Positions 1-10,296 of a stretch of 10,296 bases of DNA are shown here, one piece after another (within the stretch, counting starts at the first letter, position 1; each line of letters opens with the position of its first letter). The DNA is from a virus (Duplodnaviria; Heunggongvirae; Uroviricota; Caudoviricetes), in IMG/VR virus record IMGVR_UViG_2548876863_000020, positions 1-10,296 of that record; one strand, given 5' to 3'. The notes beneath the pieces were generated by a model. That model was not told the origin of the DNA. It made no database searches and saw nothing but the letters and a program-made list of their open reading frames with translations. Both the position numbers and the translations under genes were made by a program.

Positions 1-201
1 TTACCCATTGGCGCGGCTTAAGAGCTTATTTTTGAATTCACAATGGTCACGATATAACCATCTTGCTCGCCCGTGGATAACTTTGGCTTTAGGCAGGTCT
101 CCGGACTTAATCCGGTCATAGATGAAGGTTTTACCGAAGCCAGTATCAGCCATGATGAATTTCAAATCAACCAGTGAATCAGGCTGTAGTTCGTGTTGCA
201 T
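1..201 (-). CDS. Excisionase-like / AlpA-family small DNA-binding protein (66 aa)
   Basis: Complete ORF, ATG at 201..199 with GGAGA 8 nt upstream, stop at window base 1. Motif IMADTGFGKTFIYDRIKSGDLPKAKVIHGRARW matches the winged-helix AlpA/Xis pattern (TG..K.TIY..I..G.FP..K.G.R..W). Sits at the distal end of the leftward operon where lambdoid phages carry xis next to int. Confidence 0.6.
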   Translation of the reverse strand: MQHELQPDSLVDLKFIMADTGFGKTFIYDRIKSGDLPKAKVIHGRARWLYRDHCEFKNKLLSRANG

Positions 202-242
202 GAGTGCTATCTCCGAATAGGGAATCGAACCTGCAAATCAGG

Positions 243-266
243 CAATAAAAAACCGCATTGATGCGG
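243..266 (-). terminator. Putative intrinsic terminator (minus strand)
   Basis: Minus-strand RNA CCGCA-UCAA-UGCGG followed by UUUUUUAUUG; 5-bp GC-rich stem plus U6 tract, between the 114-aa gene and xis. Confidence 0.4.
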
Positions 267-323
267 CGATGGTAGGTCTGGATATCTTGATAAATGAAAA
301 TGCCTCATCGAGTGTGAGGCGGG

Positions 324-668
324 TTAGTCCTTGCGTAGCTCGCTGATTCTTCTGTAAGTCTCTGGTGCTTTGTTCCCGTACGTCTTCATTTCAGACTTCA
401 ACAGAGCAACGAGTGAATCCCATTCGTTGAGGATTCCTTTGAATGCCGGAACGCGCTTTGCAACCTTGTCGAATGAATCTCTGATTTCTGGAATCTGCTC
501 AACAAGTGCAACGCATCGTCGGAAATCTGCTGCGTCATGTGGAGCGCCGAAGTGATGACCATAGATATTCTTTTTCAGTCCACATGCGATTGAGGCAATA
601 GTTGCGCTACTGATGCCGACATCGCCAGTCGATTGCCATTTCAAAACCTTCATAGCCAAATCTGACAT
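324..668 (-). CDS. Hypothetical protein (114 aa)
   Basis: ORF-track frame 324..695; start refined to ATG 668..666 (MSDLAMKVLKW...) because GGAG lies 8 nt upstream and the upstream extension would run through a terminator hairpin. No family recognised. Confidence 0.6.
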   Translation of the reverse strand: MSDLAMKVLKWQSTGDVGISSATIASIACGLKKNIYGHHFGAPHDAADFRRCVALVEQIPEIRDSFDKVAKRVPAFKGILNEWDSLVALLKSEMKTYGNKAPETYRRISELRKD

Positions 669-675
669 TTCTTGT

Positions 676-702
676 CTCCAATAAAAAACCGCCATCAGGC
701 GG
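676..702 (-). terminator. Putative intrinsic terminator (minus strand)
   Basis: Minus-strand RNA CCGCC-UGAU-GGCGG followed by UUUUUUAUUGG. The stop codon TGA of the 55-aa ORF lies in the loop. Confidence 0.5.
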
Positions 703-862
703 CTTGGTGTTCTTTCAGTTCTTCAATTCGAATATTGGTTACGTCTGCATGTGCTATCTGCGCCCATATCATCCAGTGGTTATAACAGTCGTTGATGTTC
801 TCTGCTTCGATAACCCTGTTGAATGGTTCTCCATTCCATTCACCTGTGACTCGGAAGTGCAT
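695..862 (-). CDS. Small hypothetical protein (55 aa), below the ORF-track size cutoff
   Basis: ATG 862..860 with GGAG 7 nt upstream; translates MHFRVTGEWNGEPFNRVIEAENINDCYNHWMIWAQIAHADVTNIRIEELKEHQAA; stop 697..695 inside the terminator hairpin. Confidence 0.4.
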   Translation of the reverse strand: MHFRVTGEWNGEPFNRVIEAENINDCYNHWMIWAQIAHADVTNIRIEELKEHQAA

Positions 863-870
863 TTATCATC

Positions 871-900
871 TCCATAAAACAAAACTCGCCGTAGCGAGTT
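871..900 (-). terminator. Putative intrinsic terminator (minus strand)
   Basis: Minus-strand RNA AACUCGC-UACG-GCGAGUU (7-bp stem) followed by UUGUUUUAUGG, about 43 nt downstream of the 63-aa ORF. Confidence 0.5.
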
Positions 901-942
901 CAGATAAAAGAAATCCATCAATTGGTTAGGGTTTTTGTAATT

Positions 943-1134
943 CTACGAATTATGTTGTTTTTTAGCTTCAGCTTTCCATTCATCAAAGGCAGTGTCTTTG
1001 TTCATGGTGCTGATATTGATCTTACGGTCAATATCATATACACGCCACTCACCGTTAGGCCTCTCTTCGCATCTAACTAAGTATGAATTGCCATTAATAT
1101 CTATGCGTCTGTCTATTTGCATGAACATTTTCAA
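943..1134 (-). CDS. Small hypothetical protein (about 61-63 aa)
   Basis: ORF-track frame. Start ambiguous: TTG 1134 has AGAGGA 8 nt upstream; in-frame ATGs at 1128 and 1122. No family recognised. Confidence 0.5.
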   Translation of the reverse strand: MKMFMQIDRRIDINGNSYLVRCEERPNGEWRVYDIDRKINISTMNKDTAFDEWKAEAKKQHNS

Positions 1135-1245
1135 TTTTCGAATCCTCTTTAATATGCATTTTTTGCTATTTCAGTAGTTTACTATTGATGAGGCGTTATT
1201 ATACACACTTCATTAATGCAAGCATCTTTATGCTATGCTACTAAT

Positions 1246-1527
1246 TTAGCAATTGATATTCACCTTTATCGCGTATACCTTTACCGGCTTATCACCGAAG
1301 TGGGGGTGTGTGATTGTTTTCACTTCATATCCTCCATACGGAACATCAATTCTGCGACTGGAGTCGTCGCGCTTCGGATATCCCTTTGTGATAATCAGGC
1401 GGTCATACTCCCGGAACATAATTCGCTTATTCCAATAGTCATTACACAGGCGATACTCTTCCGTTTTCTCTCCTCGAATCATGGCATCGAAGTATTCACC
1501 TTTGACGGCAAGTTGTAGGTTAGCCAC
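1246..1527 (-). CDS. ASCH/DUF3850-like (PUA-fold) protein, tentative (93 aa)
   Basis: GTG start 1527..1525 with AGGAGG 6 nt upstream; overlaps the upstream gene stop by 8 nt. N-terminal pattern L.L.VKGEYFDAMIRGEKTEEYR resembles ASCH/DUF3850 as recalled; not verified by search. Confidence 0.4.
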   Translation of the reverse strand: MANLQLAVKGEYFDAMIRGEKTEEYRLCNDYWNKRIMFREYDRLIITKGYPKRDDSSRRIDVPYGGYEVKTITHPHFGDKPVKVYAIKVNINC

Positions 1528-1822
1528 GGTTAACCTCCTGCGGAGTAGCCTTTACAAGCACTGGTGCAAATCCATCTTCATTAAGGTTATGAATATAGAC
1601 TTCTGTTCTCCTGCGCTCTTCAACGTTTAATATTGTTTCTGGATCATAAACCCATACTTTCATTCGACTATTCCATGAAGAAATCGCTTCAGATCTAGTT
1701 CGTTTTTCTGGTCCTTGGGCACCACATTTGCATGACACATAGCGCATTTTCCCTCTGATACTGAATGAGTATCCGATGTTAAGCACAGTGGAACCACAGA
1801 ATGGGCAGCGATATAGATTCAT
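1520..1822 (-). CDS. Zinc-ribbon protein, Lar-like restriction-alleviation family candidate (100 aa)
   Basis: ATG 1822..1820 with AGGTGG upstream and ATGA overlap with the upstream gene. N-terminal CPFCG...CKCG four-cysteine ribbon is the motif I associate with the Lar family; the C-terminal 50 aa is an unrecognised extension. Confidence 0.45.
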   Translation of the reverse strand: MNLYRCPFCGSTVLNIGYSFSIRGKMRYVSCKCGAQGPEKRTRSEAISSWNSRMKVWVYDPETILNVEERRRTEVYIHNLNEDGFAPVLVKATPQEVNRG

Positions 1823-2520
1823 AAATCATCCACCTTAGGCGCAGCTGAGACAGCAACATTCCAGAACTCAGAAAACATATTGTATGCACCAGATAGATTG
1901 GAAGTGGCATACCCTCCAAGCTCACTTCTAATCTGAACGGCTCTCATCATTTCCGGTGTTAACTCCTTCGGCACCATAACCCAACCATCCGGAGTTACCG
2001 GAGAGTTGCCATCCAGCGCGTTCAACTTGTAAGCCTGGCTTACAGGTTCGGCTTCCAGTTCTGCTATGCGCTTCTCTGATGCTTCAAGTAACGCCTGCTT
2101 ATCGCGTAGCGCTTCTTCCAGTTCAGCAACATGGCACTCACTATCAATAAGGTTGTTCTCTGCGGCTTCCAGCTCAACACGCAGCTTCCCTACCGTTAGC
2201 GCAATATCCTCGTTCTCCTGATCACGGTTTTTGATGTATTGCTGGTTTCTTTCCCGTTCATCCAGCAGTGCCAGCACGGTAGCCGGATTGGCTGCAGCGA
2301 TGAATTCAGCATTGGCCTGCTGTTCCATTTGGAAATCTTCATCGAAACCGCTTTCAGGATGCGCTCCTTCAATTCTGCAAATAGGAATATATCCAGCAAC
2401 TTCACGATGAATTAGCGCATCATCACCATCAAATCGGCTTTCTCCATATTCGAGCGACCACTCACCACACGTTGCTTTTTCTGCCGCTTCACGCAGTGCC
2501 TGATAGTTAATTTTGGTCAT
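1819..2520 (-). CDS. Ead/Ea22-like family protein (233 aa), tentative
   Basis: ATG 2520..2518 with GGGTGA upstream. N-terminal INYQALREAAEKAT and internal LLDERERNQQYIKNRDQENEDIALTVGKLRVELE coiled coil resemble lambda Ea22-like proteins as recalled. Confidence 0.5.
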   Translation of the reverse strand: MTKINYQALREAAEKATCGEWSLEYGESRFDGDDALIHREVAGYIPICRIEGAHPESGFDEDFQMEQQANAEFIAAANPATVLALLDERERNQQYIKNRDQENEDIALTVGKLRVELEAAENNLIDSECHVAELEEALRDKQALLEASEKRIAELEAEPVSQAYKLNALDGNSPVTPDGWVMVPKELTPEMMRAVQIRSELGGYATSNLSGAYNMFSEFWNVAVSAAPKVDDL

Positions 2521-2521
2521 A

Positions 2522-2821
2522 TCACATCACCCTGAAGCCGTTGCATTTACGTAAGAAATCGCAGATATAGCCCTTCATTTTTTCATGCCAATCTCGATCA
2601 TTCCCATTGCACCAACCATCAGGTGGAGTCCAGTTTTCTATCAGAGCAGCCATTTTCTTTGCTTTCGCCGGAGTAGCTGTTGCGGTATCGCAGTAATGAC
2701 GAGTGTCAACCAACGCATCCATACCATCGATATCAAGTACGCAAAACCATGTGTGATTCGGCATTTCAACAGATGGTATTTGTTGCCCACGTCGACGTTT
2801 ATCAATAAGACATACAGTCAC
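2522..2821 (-). CDS. Hypothetical Cys/His-rich protein (99 aa)
   Basis: ORF-track frame 2522..2854; start refined to GTG 2821..2819 because AAAGGAGG lies 6 nt upstream and it forms a GTGA overlap with the stop of the 210-aa gene. Confidence 0.55.
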   Translation of the reverse strand: MTVCLIDKRRRGQQIPSVEMPNHTWFCVLDIDGMDALVDTRHYCDTATATPAKAKKMAALIENWTPPDGWCNGNDRDWHEKMKGYICDFLRKCNGFRVM

Positions 2822-3450
2822 TGGTTGCCTCCTTTGCGAAGCTGTTCCGCCCATTCTTCAAGGGATTTCTCCGCATATTCACCAGACAGGCCATCAATCG
2901 GACGCGGTTCATTAGCCAACTCTTCTTTTGCTGACAAAATCATGCGTGTAACGTCGAAAACTTCACGCAAAGACTTATTGATAAATCCGTGATTGAACGC
3001 AGCAGCAAGACGGCTGGCGGCATAGTTAATCCCCTCGTTGCGTGCTTCCGCACGTACTTCAGCAAGGAAAGCGTCGGTGGCTGGGGTATTTTCCATTAGT
3101 TTTTTTGACGTTGACCAAAGCGCGGAAAGCCACTCTTTATCAAACCATTTATCCTTATGGTGAAACATTTCATCAACTGTCTGGTGGCAGCGGGATACCT
3201 CAAAAAGGCACCGCGCATTCTCCGCCGCCAGCGCTGAAAACTTCTCGTGTGCCAACTTAACAGCCGAATCAGCCTGCTTAATTGACTCAATCGCTCTCTG
3301 TTGGTCTTCGGACAGAGCCGAAATCTTGGCCTCCGCTTCAGCAAATTTACGCACCAGATATTCAGCGTTTGTTTCGTTAACCTTTAAATCTCGTGGAATG
3401 CATTTACCTTTCAGAAAACCATCCATCTCAATTAGTGTCATTTGTTTCAT
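2818..3450 (-). CDS. Hypothetical protein (about 210 aa), predicted helical/coiled-coil
   Basis: ORF-track frame 2818..3468 (GTG); ATG 3450..3448 preferred, with GGAG about 10 nt upstream. No family recognised. Confidence 0.6.
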
Positions 3451-3607
3451 TTTTTTCCACTCCGCCACATCGCATTCAGATATTTGTTGTCATTAACAGA
3501 ACCGAAACTCTTTCTCTTAAGCAATTCCTCTCTCGATGGCATTGGTTTTACGCGTTGGCGAATAATCATTTCTGCCGGAAGAATGCCGGGATTGTATGCA
3601 AGTCCTC

Positions 3608-3889
3608 TCATGATTTACTCTCCATGAACTGGTCAACAGCCATGCTAAGTGATACACCTAACGTCTCGATATGCTGCTGAATATCCTGTAGCGTCTGCGC
3701 CTGAGATAACAGGATTTCACGGTTGCATAACTCTTTAACCAGATGCTCAAACTTGCTGTAATAACCGATACGACTGAGCGTTTCTTTCCCTGCATTCTCG
3801 CCTTCTTTGATAATTCCTCTTTCGCTAAGAATCAGGTCGTGTTTGGTTCCGGTAATAACGTATTTTCCGAGGTCGATGTTTAGCTTCAT
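3608..3889 (-). CDS. Hypothetical protein (93 aa)
   Basis: ORF-track frame, ATG 3889..3887, same strand and tight spacing with neighbours; weak RBS. No family recognised. Confidence 0.55.
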
Positions 3890-3905
3890 TGTTAATTATT
3901 CCATG

Positions 3906-4220
3906 TTAATTTATTCGTATGCCTGCTCTTTCTTCATCGAGTTTTTTTAGCTTGTATCGCATAGCCCTTACTGAATAAATTGAGCGGCAGGTTGCAATTG
4001 CTATTTCTTCTGCGGAGAACTTACCGAAAAGTGATACTTCGGCTCTTGTCCAGCGTCTTCCACGAAGTCGGCTAACAATGTCAGCTCCAATCCTTGTTGC
4101 TTTCGCCATTACTGCTTTTTCAGTCCTTTCCAGTTTTTCAGCGATAACTTCAACTGGCATTGTTGCCGCTACTTCGCACAAGAAATCGACTTCCCATTTC
4201 TCCCATGGAGTCTTTTTCAT
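3906..4220 (-). CDS. Hypothetical protein (104 aa) with an internal tandem repeat, possible DNA-binding
   Basis: Two roughly 40-aa halves share a W..EV..F...S/P.EEIA...R pattern (PWEKWEVDFLCEV...VEVIAEKLERTEKAV versus RRWTRAEVSLFGKFSAEEIAIATCRSIYSV). Confidence 0.55.
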   Translation of the reverse strand: MKKTPWEKWEVDFLCEVAATMPVEVIAEKLERTEKAVMAKATRIGADIVSRLRGRRWTRAEVSLFGKFSAEEIAIATCRSIYSVRAMRYKLKKLDEERAGIRIN

Positions 4221-4231
4221 AGTCGATACCG

Positions 4232-4720
4232 TTATTTGATAAGAAGTGAAGGTTTCCCAACTTTGAGTTGAGCGCCGGGGATATTTATTCCTGCTTTTAG
4301 TTGGTGTTTGATTGCCAGTTTGTCGGCTTTAATTGTCGTTTCAAACTCAACGTATTCAGGAGGAAGGGCGCTTGAGTCGATGATTTCTACAGTTTCTGAC
4401 GGTTTGCGGATTGTTACTTGGTGAATACCTGCTCGAATCTTTTTCTTGCCAACCATTTCAAGCGATGACGCTATATACGCCATAATGCTGTCAATCTTAT
4501 TTTGAATTACTGCGGCTCGTTCATTCAGTGACTTTGCCTCGTCCTTGAGGCGTTCAGCATAACCAGATTCATTTTTAATAATGGCGAGAAGTTGCTCTAT
4601 TTTATCGGTAAATTCTCCTTCCATTCCTTCTATTGTGTCAGCAATCATCTCTGGCTCTAAATCTGAATCCATCAATTTTGCGTATTCATTGGCTATTTCA
4701 TATAGTTTGCTCACTGGCAA
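4232..4720 (-). CDS. Coiled-coil recombination-associated protein, possibly Sipho_Gp157-like (162 aa)
   Basis: ATG 4720..4718 with GGAGG 6 nt upstream; overlaps the recT 3' end by 23 nt. Size, predicted coiled coil and position next to recT fit Gp157-family proteins; assignment is from memory only. Confidence 0.4.
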   Translation of the reverse strand: MPVSKLYEIANEYAKLMDSDLEPEMIADTIEGMEGEFTDKIEQLLAIIKNESGYAERLKDEAKSLNERAAVIQNKIDSIMAYIASSLEMVGKKKIRAGIHQVTIRKPSETVEIIDSSALPPEYVEFETTIKADKLAIKHQLKAGINIPGAQLKVGKPSLLIK

Positions 4721-5600
4721 CCTCCAGTTTCGCTTTGCATTCTATGTAAATGGCTTGTACGTTCTGCTGCAATTTCATTCCAGATGTCAGGCGATATGCT
4801 TCTGCAAAATATCGCTTCAAATCATCCATGTTTTCTGCCTGAGCCATTTCATCACAAAGAAGTTGTGCTTTTTCCATTATTTCCTGCTGGCGTTTCCGTT
4901 CATCTTCGCGGATATCTTCCTCTGATTTGTGCGGCATAACTGGTTCCTGATGCATACCTTCATCTTCGTTAAGCAGGTGAATGGCATTATCCAGTCGCTG
5001 GGCTTTAGGCCAGTATTTGCTGGCGCGTTTAACTATGGTTTTACGCGCCATCTCTTCCCAGAATGTCTTCCACGGTCCATTCTTTGCCTTGCTCGTTGCT
5101 TCCACAGCTTTAATTTCTGCCAGACTCATTTCTTCAGTCAGGTAGTCACCATCTGCTGTTTTAACCGTGCAATAACCTCCAACAATAGAGCCTCGCTCAC
5201 CAAATGCGTTGTATTTGTGGGTTGGTGCTGAATCAAGGCCATTTGATTCATAGGTGTCGTTTGAGTACACCAGTTTGCATTGCCCCCACTTAATTGATCC
5301 TGTCGATTGCGCAAGATGAAGTAATCCCATGTAACTGATATCAAGGCACACCATGCCGTCGCGAGGAACCAGATAAGCAAGTTTGCTGGCCGGGTTTAAG
5401 GTGATGCCGATCGCCGCAACATTGATGATGGCGTTCTGTGCGCTGGTTGGATTTGCCAGTGCTGTTTTAGCCAGGTAATCGTTTTTCTGGAAATACTGAA
5501 TTGCAAACTGGCTTTCCTTAGCCCATGTCACCGTCTGTTCAGTCAATGCTCCGCAGAATAACTGCTCTTGCTGTTTAACGAATTCAACGATATTGCTCAT
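4698..5600 (-). CDS. recT: RecT-family single-strand annealing recombinase (300 aa)
   Basis: ATG 5600..5598 with GGAGA 6 nt upstream. Conserved segment NGPWKTFWEEMARKTIVKRASKYWP matches the RecT signature (compare Rac RecT NGPWVTHWEEMAKKTAIRRLFKYLP, recalled). Confidence 0.85.
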   Translation of the reverse strand: MSNIVEFVKQQEQLFCGALTEQTVTWAKESQFAIQYFQKNDYLAKTALANPTSAQNAIINVAAIGITLNPASKLAYLVPRDGMVCLDISYMGLLHLAQSTGSIKWGQCKLVYSNDTYESNGLDSAPTHKYNAFGERGSIVGGYCTVKTADGDYLTEEMSLAEIKAVEATSKAKNGPWKTFWEEMARKTIVKRASKYWPKAQRLDNAIHLLNEDEGMHQEPVMPHKSEEDIREDERKRQQEIMEKAQLLCDEMAQAENMDDLKRYFAEAYRLTSGMKLQQNVQAIYIECKAKLEVASEQTI

Positions 5601-5908
5601 GCAGCTTCTCCATAAATATGTCTGCGTTTGAATATTGCGAAGGCATATTCAGCCTTAACTCTTTCGGTTATTGCATCCCAGAACCATTCAGCGGCTTTTT
5701 CCTGATAGTTACAGTCATCATCTTCCAGCCAGTCGATAGCGTCCTTAGTGTGTTCATCTGGTTTATATGAGCGAAGCATTTCGCTTATTGGGTCGCAACG
5801 TTTGCAGAGGCGATCAACTTCACTGTTGATTCGCTCGTAATCTTCATCAGTAAAACTTGCGATTATTTGCGATATTTCACGCTTATCATTCAGAGTCAGA
5901 ATCATCAT
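5597..5908 (-). CDS. Hypothetical acidic protein (103 aa), immediately upstream of and coupled to recT
   Basis: ATG 5908..5906 with AGGAG upstream; ATGA overlap with the recT start. Occupies the slot that Gam/Abc-type RecBCD inhibitors take in lambda/P22; function inferred from position only. Confidence 0.6.
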   Translation of the reverse strand: MMILTLNDKREISQIIASFTDEDYERINSEVDRLCKRCDPISEMLRSYKPDEHTKDAIDWLEDDDCNYQEKAAEWFWDAITERVKAEYAFAIFKRRHIYGEAA

Positions 5909-5989
5909 CTTTCTCCTGTTCTTTGTGCTGATTGAGCATTTTGTTCATCTGACGAATGAATTCTTCGTCTGACCAGTTATCCGTAAAAC

Positions 5990-6160
5990 TCATGGACGGC
6001 CTTGTTGTTTCAAAATATCCCAAAGCTTTTCGAGCAAACTTTTCATTCTTGGTTGTTTAAAGTCTGCTCCGGTTAAAATATTTTTTCGTGAATGCTGTAC
6101 CGATAAAATCGGGTTGAAAGGGCGAACCGATGCCGCCCCTGCAATAGCGAACTGTTGCAT
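5990..6160 (-). CDS. cIII: cIII-like protein (56 aa)
   Basis: Internal ATG 6160..6158 of the 5990..6265 frame, with AAGGAG 7 nt upstream. MQQFAIAG... start and ...SLLEKLWDILKQQGRP end resemble lambda CIII (MQYAIAG...SLLERI...RLIDILNQPGVP, recalled). The 35 codons upstream in the track ORF lack an RBS and overlap a terminator. Confidence 0.5.
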   Translation of the reverse strand: MQQFAIAGAASVRPFNPILSVQHSRKNILTGADFKQPRMKSLLEKLWDILKQQGRP

Positions 6161-6220
6161 AGGATGCTCCTTCTGTTTGATTGCATAACGAAAACGCCTC
6201 GAGTGAAGCGTTATTGGTAT

Positions 6221-6250
6221 GCATATAAAAAGGCCCTCACACTGGAGGGC
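6221..6250 (-). terminator. Putative intrinsic terminator (minus strand) upstream of cIII
   Basis: Minus-strand RNA GCCCUC-CAGUGU-GAGGGC followed by CUUUUUAUAU. Confidence 0.5.
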
Positions 6251-6384
6251 AAAGAAGATTTCCAATAATCAGAACAAGTCGGCTCCTGTTTAGTTACGAG
6301 CGACATTGCTCCGTGTATTCACTCGTTGGAATGAATACACAGTGCAGTGTTTATTCTGTTGTTTATGCCAAAAATAAAGGCCGA

Positions 6385-7008
6385 CTATGCGGCTTCGGAA
6401 GGAAGTCCAATCATCTTATTCAAATCTTCTACCCGTAAAGCAGGAAGTGCTGTACTTGCTTTATCTGCTTCTTTTGGTAGCAATTCTTTGCTTTCAGGCC
6501 AAACTTCAATAAGTCGCTTAACTGTTGTGACTGAGTTCAAAGCAGCCCATACATTTGATTCGATATCCTTTTTCAAGGCTTCAAGGTTTTGTTGCAATGC
6601 GCAGATTTCATCAAACCTTTTTGTTATTTCGTGTTCTGCGTCAAACATGCATTTATCTTTAGTCGGAGTAGGGAGCAATATATCTTCTCCGTTGCCGTCT
6701 TTCCCATATGAATGCCATCCAACCCTTCTGCCAGATACAGTCAGATAAATCGAAGTAGAACGAACATCGCATGAGTAAAATGAACATCCCAGCTTTTCAA
6801 GTTCTTCACTTATAGCTACTAACTTGGATGATAACTGATCCACTTCCTCAGTTTTATTTTTACCGCCAAACGCAATAACTCTGGCGTCAAGTGCAAGCTG
6901 GTTCTTTAACTTTGTTACTTCTTCAAGTTCAGTGAAAACCCCAGACTTAATTAAAGCGTTACGAGCGATTTTCTCTTTCATTCTCGTAGTTAAGCGGATT
7001 GATGACAT
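6385..7008 (-). CDS. Hypothetical protein (207 aa)
   Basis: ORF-track frame 6385..7023 (TTG); ATG 7008..7006 preferred, with GAGAGGT upstream. Lies between ral-like and cIII-like. No family recognised. Confidence 0.65.
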   Translation of the reverse strand: MSSIRLTTRMKEKIARNALIKSGVFTELEEVTKLKNQLALDARVIAFGGKNKTEEVDQLSSKLVAISEELEKLGCSFYSCDVRSTSIYLTVSGRRVGWHSYGKDGNGEDILLPTPTKDKCMFDAEHEITKRFDEICALQQNLEALKKDIESNVWAALNSVTTVKRLIEVWPESKELLPKEADKASTALPALRVEDLNKMIGLPSEAA

Positions 7009-7021
7009 ATTAATACCTCTC

Positions 7022-7054
7022 AAATAAGAAAATAAAGGCCACCATCAGGCAGCC
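7022..7054 (-). terminator. Putative intrinsic terminator (minus strand) after ral-like gene
   Basis: Minus-strand RNA GGCUGCC-UGAU-GGUGGCC (7 bp including two G-U pairs) followed by UUUAUUUUCUUAUUU; the ral-like stop TGA is in the loop. Confidence 0.45.
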
Positions 7055-7245
7055 TTGTTGTTCTGTTTACCAAGTTCTCTGGCAATCATTGCCGTAGTTC
7101 GTATTGCCCATTTATCGACATATTTCCCATCCTCCATTACAGGAAGCATTTCTTCAGGCTTAACCATGCATTCCGATTGCAGCTTGCATCCATTGCATCG
7201 CTTGAATTGTCCACACCATTGATTTTTATCAATAGTCGTAGTCAT
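7045..7245 (-). CDS. ral: Ral-like restriction-alleviation protein (66 aa), cysteine-rich
   Basis: ATG 7245..7243. Sequence MTTTIDKNQWCGQFKRCNGCKLQSEC... matches my recollection of lambda Ral closely, and it lies downstream of N in the pL operon as ral does in lambda. Not verified by search. Confidence 0.5.
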   Translation of the reverse strand: MTTTIDKNQWCGQFKRCNGCKLQSECMVKPEEMLPVMEDGKYVDKWAIRTTAMIARELGKQNNKAA

Positions 7246-7323
7246 ACGGATAGTCCTGGTATTGTTCCATCACATCCTGCGGATGCTCTTCGAACTCTTC
7301 AAATTCTTCTTCCATATCTCACC

Positions 7324-7623
7324 TCAAATAAGTGGTTTGCTGCCTAATTTCATTTTCTGGCAACCAACACAAGTCACACCCATTTCACTGCGTGGCTTGC
7401 GGTAGTAAATACGGTTCTGTTTACGCTCGACTTCTTCTTTCTTCTTGCAGCAAAGGCTTCCTAGCGATGCTGCTTTGTCTGCTCTGACGCAACCAGAGAG
7501 CTTTAGCGCAATTTTTCGCGCCAGTCGCTGCTCTTGCATCGCCTGTTCACGTTGAGCCTGTCTGCGTGCTCTGCGGCGATTTCTGGCGTTATCGTCAGCC
7601 AGATATGTAATGACTACTGTCAT
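7324..7623 (-). CDS. N: Antitermination protein N (99 aa)
   Basis: ATG 7623..7621 with GGAGG 5 nt upstream (track ORF extends further with a non-ATG start). Arginine-rich motif NARNRRRARRQAQREQ near the N-terminus; C-terminus ERKQNRIYYRKPRSEMGVTCVGCQKMKLGSKPLI parallels lambda N (ERKNQRTWYSKPGERGITCSGRQKIKGKSIPLI, recalled). Confidence 0.85.
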   Translation of the reverse strand: MTVVITYLADDNARNRRRARRQAQREQAMQEQRLARKIALKLSGCVRADKAASLGSLCCKKKEEVERKQNRIYYRKPRSEMGVTCVGCQKMKLGSKPLI

Positions 7624-7678
7624 GTTGACCTCCGATGAAACAACTTTGGAATTGATAGTGATTGCAAAGTGGTTTCTG

Positions 7679-7707
7679 GCCCCTCGAACTGAGGGGCAGA
7701 AAGAGCA
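7679..7707 (-). promoter_or_regulatory. GC-rich hairpin with boxA-like flank in the N leader (function uncertain)
   Basis: Minus-strand RNA UGCUCUUUCU then GCCCCUC-AGUUC-GAGGGGC (7-bp perfect stem), about 55 nt upstream of the N start; no U tract after it, so not a classical terminator. Confidence 0.35.
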
Positions 7708-7936
7708 TCTCGCCACCTAATAGGTCGATGCTCGGATCGAGAGATTTAATTAACCTCGGTTTTGAAGTTATGCATTCACATAAATCCTCCTACCTCTTGT
7801 GCAGCTTTCTTGAATATGGTGGCGGCTGCATAACGCCTATGGAATTGACTTTGGCGGTGACGCGCCGGGTGCTTATCTTCCGGTTGCCGTCGTGCAGCTG
7901 CACTTCACGTCACCCCAAAGCCAACTACTCTTTGGT

Positions 7937-7978
7937 TCCCGCATTTCGGCGGGACAATCCCATCAATGTTAAAGAGCA
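7937..7978 (-). promoter_or_regulatory. nutL (boxA + boxB)
   Basis: Minus-strand RNA UGCUCUUUAAC (boxA-like; consensus CGCUCUUUA) followed after 14 nt by hairpin UCCCGC-CGAAAU-GCGGGA. The same boxA plus identical boxB occurs in the same transcript orientation downstream of cro. Confidence 0.7.
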
Positions 7979-8023
7979 TGCCAATCTGTTCCGTTTGGCT
8001 ACCAGCGTCCTGCTGATGGCTAA

Positions 8024-8052
8024 AGAATACTGTAGGTATTTTATTGTGTAAA
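8024..8052 (-). promoter_or_regulatory. pL candidate (-35 TTTACA, 17-nt spacer, -10 TATTCT on minus strand)
   Basis: Read on the minus strand: TTTACA (plus 8047-8052), spacer of 17, TATTCT (plus 8024-8029). Same -10 hexamer as the pR candidate; overlaps OL1, about 40 nt upstream of nutL. Confidence 0.45.
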
Positions 8053-8110
8053 TACCCAAGGTATTTATTTTTGGTGAAATAATGATAAGCAAATGAATAC
8101 AAAGGATATT
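8026..8110. promoter_or_regulatory. OL operator cluster (three 15-bp palindromic sites)
   Basis: AATAC-TGTAG-GTATT (8026-8040), AATAC-CCAAG-GTATT (8051-8065), AATAC-AAAGG-ATATT (8096-8110). Same AATAC-N5-GTATT motif as in the cI-cro intergenic region. Confidence 0.6.
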
Positions 8111-8197
8111 TATTTTTTTCGGTGTCTGCTTGTTCAGTGCTTTTTATGCGGGATATGTGAAGTGGATCCCGATAGCTATTGCTGCCGGGATTATGAG

Positions 8198-8566
8198 TTA
8201 GTCAGCGAAGGTTAAGACGAGAATTACCTTAATGATGTCTGCTACAACAGACACGGCCATAGATAAACCAAAGACGATCCAAGCCATAGAGATGTCTTCA
8301 CTACCATCGTATAGAGTTCCGTAATCACTGGTGTAAGGCGTAAATGTCGCGCCTTGATACAACAGGTATAAGCTTGAACCATAGAGGATAAATGCAGATA
8401 TCCCTTGTATTGCTATGATCACTAGAATCATGAAACGAGCTGATCTATGCGCCCAAGCCTGGCTTATTTTTTCTGATAGAGATTTCGCAATAAAAGCATG
8501 CGCTAAGCCGTAAATTGTCGAGATTGCCAACATCCCAAAAAAGCTTGCTATAGCGGTTCCAACCAT
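8198..8566 (-). CDS. Small integral membrane protein (about 122 aa, three predicted TM helices) co-transcribed downstream of cI
   Basis: ORF-track frame 8198..8587 (TTG overlapping the cI stop); ATG 8566..8564 with AAGGGG upstream is the more likely start. Three hydrophobic stretches of roughly 25 residues each. No terminator between it and cI. Confidence 0.65.
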   Translation of the reverse strand: MVGTAIASFFGMLAISTIYGLAHAFIAKSLSEKISQAWAHRSARFMILVIIAIQGISAFILYGSSLYLLYQGATFTPYTSDYGTLYDGSEDISMAWIVFGLSMAVSVVADIIKVILVLTFAD

Positions 8567-8583
8567 AAGCGCCCCTTGCGTGA

Positions 8584-9300
8584 TCAAACCAGCCTTAGTT
8601 TTGTCTCAATTGCAACGCCTATAATCTTGCAGTTTCCATTGATTGGCACGAGAGGCCATGCAGGGTTAAGTCCCTTGAGGTATTTATTTCCGCCGTCGAT
8701 TATCAGCTTCTTGAATGTTGCTTCGTTAGAGTCAGAAAGTTTTGCTATGACCAAGCTGCCGTTGATCGCCTCCCTTCCGGTATCGAAAAGAACGAATGTT
8801 CCCTCTGGAATGCTTAACCCAACCGGTGCCGTCATTGAATCACCTTCCACTTTAAGCCAGAACGCATTACCTTGAATATGCGCGTCAGACTCAAGCCAAA
8901 CATCTATGTCTTTAATGGTGTATGGTTCGCATGCTTCACACCACGAGCCAGCCTGGATACTGCTTAACACCGGATACCTCTTTCCTGCTCTGTATTCCCC
9001 TGCATACCTTACGTTGGCATCGCTCTTAAGGCTTTCTGCCTGTTCTGCAACCTTGGCAGCAATTGACTGGCTAAAATCAGCAATTGAGACTTGCAACAGT
9101 CGTGCAAAACCAGATGCAACCTCAACGTTTAGCGCGTTTCTGCCATTAAGATAATGCCCTACCGCTCCTTGGGTGATACCCAGTTCATCAGCGATTGAGT
9201 ATTGGGTTATTCCCAATTCTTTCTTTTTTGACTCATACAAAGCCTTAAGCCGCTTAGCGTCTTCGAGCTGTTCTGTCGTCAGTGATTTTTTATTTTCCAT
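8584..9300 (-). CDS. cI: CI-type prophage repressor (238 aa), HTH plus S24 autopeptidase domain
   Basis: Strong resemblance to lambda CI as recalled (LTTEQLEDAKRLKALYESKKKELG...). Ala-Gly cleavage site in IQAGSW, catalytic Ser in EGDSMTAP, Lys in TFKKLI. Divergent from cro with operators between them. Confidence 0.95.
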   Translation of the reverse strand: MENKKSLTTEQLEDAKRLKALYESKKKELGITQYSIADELGITQGAVGHYLNGRNALNVEVASGFARLLQVSIADFSQSIAAKVAEQAESLKSDANVRYAGEYRAGKRYPVLSSIQAGSWCEACEPYTIKDIDVWLESDAHIQGNAFWLKVEGDSMTAPVGLSIPEGTFVLFDTGREAINGSLVIAKLSDSNEATFKKLIIDGGNKYLKGLNPAWPLVPINGNCKIIGVAIETKLRLV

Positions 9301-9306
9301 AGCTTA

Positions 9307-9335
9307 ATTCTAATAGCTAAGGTACTTAAACTAAA
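9307..9335 (-). promoter_or_regulatory. pRM candidate, leaderless or near-leaderless cI transcript
   Basis: On the minus strand, TAGAAT (plus 9307-9312) ends 6 nt before the cI ATG and there is no Shine-Dalgarno, as for lambda pRM; the -35 is weak (TTTAGT). Confidence 0.35.
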
Positions 9336-9375
9336 AATACCCTAAGTATTGATTGCTTTGAATACCTGTAGTATT
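9312..9375. promoter_or_regulatory. OR operator cluster (OR3, OR2, OR1)
   Basis: AATAG-CTAAG-GTACT (9312-9326), AATAC-CCTAA-GTATT (9336-9350), AATAC-CTGTA-GTATT (9361-9375); centre-to-centre spacing 24-25 bp. Confidence 0.65.
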
Positions 9376-9377
9376 CT
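9349..9377 (+). promoter_or_regulatory. pR candidate (-35 TTGATT, 17-nt spacer, -10 TATTCT)
   Basis: -35 at 9349-9354 overlaps OR2; -10 at 9372-9377 overlaps OR1; about 30 nt upstream of the cro start. Confidence 0.5.
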
Positions 9378-9406
9378 TTGTTCATGGTTAATAACGGAGA
9401 GTGCAT

Positions 9407-9601
9407 ATGATTCGAATGACACTTGCCGATTACGCCAAAATCCATGGACAGGCTAAAGCAGCCAGTGACTTTGGTGTAATCCAGTGCGCTATCAGCAAGG
9501 CCATTCTGGCAGGCCGTAACATTATGGTTACGGTAAAGCCTGATGGCAGTGTGATTGGAGAGGAAGTTCGTCCTTTCCCAAGCAACAAGAAAAACAAATA
9601 G
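9407..9601 (+). CDS. cro: Cro repressor (64 aa)
   Basis: ATG 9407 with GGAGA 6 nt upstream (track ORF begins at GTG 9401). Resembles lambda Cro as recalled (ITLKDYA..FGQTK.A.DLGV.QSAINKAI.AGR...DGSV..EEV.PFPSNKK). Confidence 0.9.
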
Positions 9602-9607
9602 TAACAC

Positions 9608-9652
9608 CGCTCTTTAACAGTCATGGTCCTCATTCCCGCCGAAATGCGGGAA
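9608..9652 (+). promoter_or_regulatory. nutR (boxA + boxB)
   Basis: CGCTCTTTA at 9608-9616 (boxA consensus), then hairpin TTCCCGC-CGAAAT-GCGGGAA at 9633-9652, identical to the nutL boxB, immediately after the cro stop. Confidence 0.75.
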
Positions 9653-9658
9653 TACAAC

Positions 9659-9690
9659 GCGCACAAGTTGATGCGCATAACTTCTTATTA
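9659..9690 (+). terminator. tR1 candidate
   Basis: Hairpin GCGCA-caagttga-TGCGC followed by a moderately U-rich AUAACUUCUUAUU, between nutR and cII. Weak as an intrinsic terminator; could be Rho-dependent as in lambda. Confidence 0.3.
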
Positions 9691-9709
9691 GTTAAGGAAA
9701 TACTTACAT

Positions 9710-9988
9710 ATGCAACTTACAAGTACTCGCAAGAAAGCGAATGCAATTACAAGCAACATCCTGAATCGAATTGCTGTACGTGGTCAGCGAAAGGTTGCCG
9801 ACGCGTTAGGGATTAATGAATCGCAAATTTCGCGATGGAAAGACAGCTTCATCCCAAAAATGGGAATGCTTCTGGCTGTTCTTGAATGGGGTGTTGAAGA
9901 CGAGGAGTTGGCGGAACTGGCTAAGAAAGTAGCCAGAATGCTGACAAAAGAAAAAGCCCCGAAGAACGGCGAATTCTTCGAGGCCTGA
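9710..9988 (+). CDS. cII: CII transcriptional activator (92 aa)
   Basis: ATG 9710 with AAGGAAA upstream. Resembles lambda CII as recalled (KSQISRWK....[14 protein letters not shown]...A.LA..VA..LT). Confidence 0.9.
9944..9980 (-). terminator. oop-like antisense terminator inside the cII 3' end
   Basis: Minus-strand RNA CGAAGAA-UUCGCCG-UUCUUCG (7-bp stem) followed by GGGCUUUUUCUUUUG; position matches the lambda oop RNA terminator. Confidence 0.35.
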
Positions 9989-10022
9989 TGTAGAAAGACT
10001 GGATCAATCCACAGGAGTAATT

Positions 10023-10169
10023 ATGACAAAACAACTCAGTCCTTACCAGGACAAAATTCACAAACACATACTACGTGATCGCTTCCTGTCCAGCTTCAAG
10101 CAGCCTGGTCGATTCCGGGCTGAGTTGGAAAAAGTGAAGCTGATGCAGAAGGAGAAAGGTCATGAGTAA
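10023..10169 (+). CDS. Small hypothetical protein (48 aa), below the ORF-track cutoff
   Basis: ATG 10023 with AGGAG 6 nt upstream; translates [48 protein letters not shown]; stop 10167-10169. Confidence 0.4.
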
Positions 10170-10296
10170 TCTTGCAACCGTAACACATTTAAGGCCTTCA
10201 CAACGGCCTGTGGAGCGTCGTGTGGCAGAAGTTGAAGATGGTTATACTGAACCGCCCCGGGAATCCTGGAGACTAAACTCCCTGAGAAAGAGGTAA
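10162..10296 (+). CDS. Small ORF (44 aa) with an N-terminus reminiscent of replication protein O; ends at the window edge
   Basis: ATG 10162 with AGGAG upstream, overlapping the previous stop by 8 nt. [10 protein letters not shown]...[11 protein letters not shown] parallels lambda O MTNTAKILNF...RNVADLDDGYA (recalled); stop TAA at 10294-10296. Every forward frame has a stop in the last 60 nt. Confidence 0.4.

Follow-up and report, generated by a model that had tools for sequence, protein, structure and literature searches.

A candidate lambda-Gam-type RecBCD inhibitor in the nuclease-free RecT module of a lambdoid Escherichia coli prophage

The 10,296-nucleotide stretch analyzed here (virus record IMGVR_UViG_2548876863_000020, positions 1 to 10,296; hereafter the window) comes from a lambdoid Escherichia coli prophage, of which it forms the immunity and early-left region, and it carries a gene for a RecT-family single-strand annealing protein within a block of small genes. 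The interpretation we favor, with somewhat better than even confidence, is that this block is an HK140-type homologous-recombination (Rec) module, running leftward from pL, with a Gam-fold protein that acts on RecBCD. The gene order after cIII is a 35-residue Arf/gp33-like peptide, a 102-residue acidic protein, RecT, a Sipho_Gp157 family protein, and an Abc1/Mu-gp9-like protein. A RecT module lacking an exonuclease is ordinary and has already been catalogued; what is added here is the family of the 102-residue protein, which is very probably of a divergent lambda-Gam type.

A RecT module without a recognizable exonuclease

The recT gene (4698-5600, minus strand) encodes a product of 300 residues. 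An initial annotation, made from the sequence alone, had named it RecT, and profile searches identify it as such: the protein matches PF03837 (E 2.6e-33; bit score 115.7, cut-off 24; residues 31-214, profile positions 5-186 of 198), TIGR00616 (76.8 against a cut-off of 52.65), and phrog_148 (E 1.5e-91). The TGA of the upstream acidic-protein gene overlaps the recT ATG (...GCATGAGC...; the upstream open reading frame (ORF) ends in ...GAAGCTGCATGAGC). Between cIII and the gene that ends at position 3906, neighboring genes overlap by ATGA at two junctions and over a longer stretch at two others, and a gap of 11 nucleotides separates them at one further junction; no terminator-like site was found on the coding strand from 3906 to 6023. 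The tight packing and partial overlaps suggest translational coupling.

In Pfam and PHROG scans, neither neighbor of recT resembles a nuclease of the RecE, lambda Exo, or YqaJ type, as the initial annotation had proposed, and an exonuclease elsewhere in the operon was not recognized either. Among the 20 operon ORFs scanned with the same two libraries, from N to xis, there was no match to nuclease domains of the Exo, YqaJ, RecE, PD-(D/E)XK, DnaQ, or HNH types; as positive controls, the RecE-like neighbors of the family in SEN22 and phiEt88 did match DUF3799. The early-right region of the related phage HK140 contains NinB, RusA, and HNH genes and no Exo, RecE, or YqaJ. With no nuclease domain detectable in these sequences, the phage appears to encode no exonuclease. 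Of the profiles that had been suggested as checks, RecT and Sipho_Gp157 (the downstream protein) were matched, and no match was obtained to YqaJ, PF06064 (Gam), or Abc2. A cryptic exonuclease could in principle reside in an uncharacterized protein of the PL operon, such as the 216-residue phrog_614 protein, the 212-residue Nmad5 protein, or the DUF7739 protein, or in the C-terminal domain of Gp157. For six or seven proteins of the operon no function has been assigned, and relatives carry an exonuclease exactly at the Gp157 position. We regard this explanation as highly improbable.

The view that RecT here lacks an expected partner was overstated, because a nuclease-less module type has already been published. 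In the survey by Zheng et al. (2025, Genome Res; PMC12315714), HK140 is listed as SAP-4/RecT plus MuGam without a nuclease, a nuclease is missing from 84 of the 246 lambdoid Rec modules, and the P22 class comprises 46 phages that combine an anti-RecBCD gene with an annealing protein and lack a nuclease. The nuclease-free RecT module is therefore a documented type and not an anomaly. The Rec module of HK140 matches the window in gene content and gene order at about 94% DNA identity, its gp42 is 100% identical to the acidic protein upstream of RecT, and nothing substantive differs between the two; the main text of Zheng et al. (PMC12315714) gives no single-stranded DNA-binding protein (SSB) for HK140 and counts neither gp42 nor the gene for the 104-residue Abc1/Mu-gp9-like protein as module members. 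The four-gene RecT-module block is shared at 92-98% identity with HK140, mEpX1, Gally, Kapi1, and others, and 266 of 5,426 complete E. coli genomes contain 80% or more of it. The record of a relative, phage Louie (PQ850616.1), has an annotated HNH endonuclease gene inside the part corresponding to the RecT/Gp157/104-residue block, which would indicate that the block tolerates insertions.

An acidic protein with a predicted lambda-Gam fold

The gene directly upstream of recT had been described as encoding a 103-residue acidic protein coupled to recT by an ATGA overlap. Both features were borne out (isoelectric point 4.65, net charge -9), with one refinement: the ORF (5597-5908, minus strand) encodes 103 residues from its first ATG, and the start of its homologues corresponds to the second ATG (5905), which gives a protein of 102 residues (5597-5905). 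The protein has no Pfam or NCBIfam match, and its PHROG family, phrog_3486, is listed as "unknown function". The family as a whole has no annotation in Pfam, NCBIfam, PHROGs, or the E. coli genome records checked, and no description of it was found in the searchable literature. When 1.84 billion representative proteins were searched exhaustively with the family profile, no more than 54 matched, most of them stand-alone proteins about 100 residues long, and a tblastn search with the family consensus added phiEt88 alone. Edno5 was hinted at as a further member at Foldseek rank 22 and was not confirmed.

An AlphaFold2 model built from a 36-sequence alignment predicts an all-helical protein of five helices (predicted local distance difference test (pLDDT) 92.2, predicted template modeling score (pTM) 0.78). 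In the comparison of predicted folds, lambda GamS was the single best match, and the model was classed as having a GamS-like fold. The 36 family members are 97-110 residues long, with isoelectric points of 4.4-5.5 and net charges of -4 to -14; the corresponding values for GamS family members are 97-100 residues, 4.6-4.9, and -7 to -12. In a profile-profile alignment with hhalign, residues 53-77 of the 102-residue protein (HTKDAIDWLEDDDCNYQEKAAEWFW) align colinearly with residues 57-81 of Gam (ASKNAISKAFDDDVEFQERAAEFIR) at P 0.0013, and the aligned segment contains a motif of the DDDxxYQE or DDDxxFQE type common to both families. The score of this match was 22.4, and none of 200 column shuffles reached it (mean 11.1, standard deviation 2.0, maximum 17.5). 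Only 25 columns are aligned with confidence, and a relaxed alignment is colinear across 83 columns. The family also has a weak full-length, colinear profile match to phi80 GamL, the score of which was reached by 1 of 200 shuffles.

The resemblance to lambda Gam (GamS, PDB 2UUZ; RecBCD complex 5MBV) thus comprises a length of about 100 residues, acidity, an all-helical architecture, the best structural match, and the DDDxxFQE-type motif. It extends to gene position, as gam follows cIII/kil and lies directly upstream of the annealing-protein gene, as the 102-residue gene does. The initial annotation had placed the gene in the slot of lambda gam or P22 abc; the first part stands, whereas the second does not, since abc1 and abc2 lie downstream of erf and the upstream slot in P22 is occupied by arf. 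An earlier example of a Gam-fold protein that differs greatly in sequence and is placed before RecT (SAP-4) is GamL of phi80/Lula (phrog_1050). GamL differs from the protein described here in belonging to another PHROG family and in keeping the lambda Gam N-terminus, and phi80 additionally has Exo and the Mog antitoxin. On the strength of the fold model and the alignments, we consider it likely that the 102-residue protein is homologous to Gam in fold. That it actually inhibits RecBCD would be a further step, toward which we lean only slightly; the predicted GamS-like fold, motif, size, charge, gene slot, and exchange for Gam in phage Dewey (see below) uphold its initial designation as a plausible anti-RecBCD candidate.

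Other small recombination proteins were considered as relatives and discarded. Direct BLASTP comparison of the 103-residue form with P22 Arf showed no similarity, and comparisons of the 103-residue form and of a 93-residue protein of the window with P22 Abc2, which returned E 2.9 and no alignment, likewise showed none; phrog_656, which holds P22 Abc2, had no match among the window ORFs scanned. A sequence search of the 103-residue form against PDB chains gave nothing significant. Nearly all members in the family alignment end in an E-[AV]-A tail after the long last helix, in a part of the model with pLDDT of about 52. This conserved tail could be a short docking motif.

Gene neighborhoods of the 102-residue family

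In all 11 informative contexts examined, the 102-residue gene heads the recombination module and stands directly before the recombination genes. It usually follows cIII, and its stop codon overlaps the start codon of whichever gene comes next. The conserved synteny is not tied to one set of partners, as the gene precedes RecT plus Gp157 in the window and in modules of the HK140 type, RecT together with Exo or YqaJ in ENT47670, Midgardsormr38, P0054, and P0046, a RecE-like protein plus RecT in phiEt88, a RecE-like protein plus an SSB-like and a phrog_323 protein in SEN22, and, on a short contig, just a RecE-like gene. Phage Dewey has a bona fide lambda Gam (PF06064, E 1.5e-50) in the exact slot of the 102-residue gene, and this gam precedes a homologous RecT-Gp157-104-residue block with about 91% identity to the window over the matched DNA pieces.

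These neighborhoods bear on an alternative in which the 102-residue protein is an Arf-like recombination accessory that stimulates or loads the annealing protein or nuclease encoded after it, with the likeness to Gam reflecting a generic small helical fold. The gene does hold the slot of P22 arf, immediately before the annealing protein, and is coupled to the following recombination gene, whichever that may be. However, the partners are unrelated to one another (RecT, a RecE-like PD-(D/E)XK nuclease, and a 281-residue protein without a Pfam match), which counts against a partnership with one specific protein and favors a target in the host. The absence of Gam similarity at the level of hidden Markov models (HMMs) and the lack of conservation of the Gam N-terminal helix sequence would fit an accessory, whereas the single best match of the predicted fold to lambda GamS, the common DDDxxFQE-type motif, and the true Gam that takes the place of the gene in Dewey would not. 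Moreover, the protein has no similarity to Arf, and just upstream there is a distinct Arf/gp33-like ORF. Taken together, an accessory role seems unlikely to us.

Two of the neighborhoods deserve description in their own right. On two metagenome contigs (4001-5638 and 3778-5415, respectively), a 105-residue family member is followed by the 281-residue protein and then by Sipho_Gp157. The 281-residue protein matches the "exonuclease" PHROGs phrog_2489 and phrog_7838 and no Pfam nuclease domain, and no annealing protein was recognizable in this module. The 281-residue protein may correspond to the nuclease-less "RecE-2" type mentioned by Zheng et al. (PMC12315714). In SEN22 (positions 4501-6513 of the extracted stretch), a 96%-identical copy of the 103-residue gene lies directly before the RecE-like nuclease gene, with the phrog_323 protein encoded downstream; that survey (Zheng et al., 2025; PMC12315714) lists SEN22 as a module type without an anti-RecBCD gene or annealing protein.

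The Gp157 protein downstream of RecT

The gene overlapping the recT 3' end had been described as encoding a coiled-coil protein, which the predicted structure supports, although its identity as a member of the Sipho_Gp157 family had been missed. It matches PF05565 over the whole profile (E 1.5e-36, 126.3 bits against a cut-off of 28.6; residues 5-162, profile positions 1-162 of 162) and phrog_253, named "Mu Gam-like end protection" (E 3.7e-53), and its homologues carry the name "siphovirus Gp157 family protein". The ORF spans 4232-4720 on the minus strand, and the TTG at 4720 directly abuts a GGAGG sequence. A GTG at 4714 is the most likely start, because it lies 6 nucleotides after the GGAGG and gives 160 residues (4232-4714), the length of nearly all 120 homologues among the matches listed. 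From this start, the gene overlaps the 3' end of recT by 17 nucleotides. The AlphaFold2 model (pLDDT 79.8) consists of a 68-residue helix (residues 21-88) followed by strands in a small C-terminal beta domain (residues 92-159), and no nuclease fold is apparent in it.

The Gp157 copy of HK140 is called MuGam by Zheng et al. (2025; PMC12315714). The relationship to Mu Gam was weak in our comparisons: Gp157 scored 16.4 bits against PF07352 (Phage_Mu_Gam), below the cut-off of 28.3 (E 0.0089), with an alignment colinear over profile positions 30-147 of 149, and the hhalign comparison with the single Mu Gam sequence (P 0.048; 2 of 150 shuffles reached the score) was marginal and varied with the choice of alignment. 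No significant PDB match was found with a sequence search of the 162-residue form or with a family-profile search. The label "Mu Gam-like end binder" is accordingly a literature annotation, and we file the protein as Gp157 on its sequence family.

A model of module function and its alternatives

If the 102-residue protein functions like lambda Gam, it would act, probably as a dimer, as a DNA mimic occupying the DNA-end site of RecBCD. In lambda, GamS is a dimeric DNA mimic with an acidic surface that fills the duplex-binding site of RecBCD, and Gam's N-terminal helix plugs the 3' single-stranded DNA channel of RecB (PMC5218532). With RecBCD blocked, linear phage DNA would be spared degradation. 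Gp157 may bind or protect double-strand ends, and RecT would anneal single-stranded DNA, either bared at replication forks or made by nucleases of the host. Accessory roles would fall to the Abc1/gp9-like protein and the 35-residue peptide.

Several observations weigh against this model. The sequence link to Gam is invisible to HMMER: the 102-residue protein does not match PF06064 even at E values up to 10, and the family profile does not retrieve 2UUZ from the PDB by sequence. The hhalign probability of the Gam match is only 18%, and a Foldseek search of the 103-residue model against BFVD retrieved one family member and no Gam. The N-terminal helix sequence (MNAY..QDRIEAQ), which lambda Gam and GamL share (score 37.2, residues 1-26), is not conserved in the 102-residue family. 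Should Gp157 likewise be an end-binder directed against RecBCD, two such functions would coexist in the module, a combination given for only three phages by Zheng et al. (PMC12315714). In addition, six small PL-operon proteins without assigned function leave some room for a cryptic nuclease.

The missing plug sequence would also fit a division of roles in which Gp157 is the functional anti-RecBCD element and the DNA-mimic-like 102-residue protein targets another host enzyme, such as SbcCD, MukBEF, a restriction system, or a defense nuclease. Gp157 is annotated as Mu Gam-like and is classed as anti-RecBCD by Zheng et al. (PMC12315714), while the Mu Gam link was weak in the comparisons described above. 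Acidic DNA mimics can have multiple targets, as T7 gp5.9 is listed in the literature both as a RecBCD and as a MukBEF inhibitor, and the operon has other anti-defense genes (Ral and Lar-like). On the other hand, a Gam-type protein recurs together with Gp157 (in Dewey, and as GamL plus MuGam in HK639), so the two are not simply redundant, and the 102-residue homologue is the only candidate anti-RecBCD gene beside the recombinase in SEN22, ENT47670, Midgardsormr38, and phiEt88. We judge this assignment of roles improbable.

A more speculative proposal, which we hold to be distinctly doubtful, is that the HK140-type module is a nuclease-independent system for handling DNA ends. The Gam-fold protein would neutralize or re-program RecBCD, and a Ku/Mu-Gam-like Gp157, at the position where relatives have Exo, would capture ends and hand them to RecT; Gp157 would thereby replace the exonuclease instead of being a second RecBCD inhibitor, and the 102-residue family would represent a third, hitherto unrecognized Gam-like DNA-mimic lineage. 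The family would then also provide modules now scored without an anti-RecBCD function, such as that of SEN22, with one. The HK140-type module with a Gam-fold protein acting on RecBCD remains our preferred interpretation. The initial annotation had anticipated RecT, the absence of nuclease neighbors, and the candidate anti-RecBCD protein, and had missed the Gp157 identity, the phrog_323 gene described next, and the published module type.

The 104-residue protein and parallels with P22 and Mu

The last gene of the block (3906-4220, minus strand) encodes a 104-residue protein with two helix-turn-helix (HTH)-like repeats that matches phrog_11492 (E 7.8e-23) and phrog_323 (E 3e-19). The latter family also holds P22 Abc1 (E 1.3e-23) and Mu gp9 (E 5.2e-29). 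In pairwise BLASTP comparisons, the 104-residue protein resembles Mu gp9 (E 1e-4) through the duplicated HTH-like motif, whereas no similarity to P22 Abc1 was obtained, and a sequence search against PDB chains gave nothing significant. The record of phage Gally names this protein "Anti-RecBCD protein 1, similar to P22 Abc1".

A phrog_323 HTH-repeat protein adjoins a "Mu Gam-like" protein both here (Gp157 followed by the 104-residue protein, 3906-4714) and in phage Mu (gp9 followed by Gam, 5482-6325 of the Mu stretch), which suggests that the two genes form a conserved two-gene unit. The parallel with the gp9-Gam pair has its limits, as the gene order is reversed in Mu, Mu Gam belongs to phrog_491/PF07352 as opposed to phrog_253/PF05565 in the window, and Mu has no RecT. 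The arf-erf-abc1-abc2 region of P22 is similar to the window module in being nuclease-free, in having small accessory genes on either side of the annealing protein, and in the placement of an Abc1-family (phrog_323) gene downstream of it, with an Arf-like peptide on the upstream side. It differs in having Erf instead of RecT and in lacking Gp157 and a Gam-fold protein, while no window ORF scanned matched Abc2.

The upstream boundary of the module

The upstream boundary of the recombination module is a cIII-like gene (5990-6160, minus strand), which encodes 56 residues from an internal ATG. The match to phrog_550 ("CIII anti-termination", E 4e-22) covers residues 36-91 of the long ORF, and a cIII gene of 171 nucleotides is annotated at the corresponding place in HK140. 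The TGA of cIII overlaps the ATG of the 35-residue ORF (CCATGAGT), in an arrangement of ATGA coupling.

The 35-residue ORF (5886-5993, minus strand) matches phrog_17766 (E 1.1e-15) and phrog_2123 (E 3.8e-10). Its residues 1-16 (MSFTDNWSDEEFIRQM) are identical to those of HK75 gp33 (BLASTP E 2e-12, 16 of 21 identical), and it weakly resembles the N-terminus of P22 Arf (FSDEEFI; BLASTP E 0.005). HK75 gp33 triggers P2 OLD and was proposed to be a new RecBCD manipulator in a July 2026 preprint (bioRxiv 10.64898/2026.07.10.737580). In the phages HK542, mEp235, and PhiR12, the match to the window starts at about 5944 and extends rightwards only, which places a mosaic junction at about 5944, inside this ORF. 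By these alignments, the ORF may be a chimera made at the junction.

Genomic setting

The closest genomic match to the window is E. coli OkiPb01684, which covers 73% of it at 99.9% identity. A cI-type repressor gene (8584-9300, minus strand) is followed to its right by cro-like and cII-like genes on the plus strand. The leftward early operon from N to xis appears to be held within the window; on the minus strand, this pL operon runs from the N-like gene (7324-7716) through Ral, Nmad5, and cIII to the recombination block, followed by Ea22-like and other "ea" genes, the Lar-like gene, and an AlpA/Xis-type gene (xis, 1-201). The window contains no Chi site against 0.19 expected, a length too short for this count to be informative.

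Two restriction-alleviation genes are present in the operon, namely Ral (7045-7245, minus strand; PF11058, E 6e-48) and a gene for a Lar-like protein (1520-1822, minus strand; PF14354, E 1e-8). Between Ral and cIII lies the gene for the 212-residue Nmad5 protein (6385-7023, minus strand; PF18757, E 1.8e-69); in Dhillonvirus, phages escape the Tmn defense system through mutation of nmad5 (PMC11846954). A gene for a 129-residue predicted membrane protein (8198-8587, minus strand; phrog_6534, "unknown function") is located between cI and N, which is the position of the rexAB genes of lambda and of sieB-type exclusion genes, and HK140 has a related hypothetical gene at this position.

Implications for lambdoid recombination modules

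Four anti-RecBCD types (Gam, GamL, Abc2, and MuGam) are recognized in lambdoid phages by Zheng et al. (PMC12315714). If the 102-residue family is indeed of the lambda-Gam type, it would add a further sequence type to these, and the bookkeeping of Rec modules considered to lack a RecBCD inhibitor, such as that of SEN22, would change. The protein would then also be a likely trigger for defense systems such as retron Ec48, P2 OLD, and Gabija, which sense end-binding proteins or the inhibition of RecBCD. Moreover, the compact cassette of RecT, the Gam-like protein, and Gp157 is a candidate for use in recombineering.

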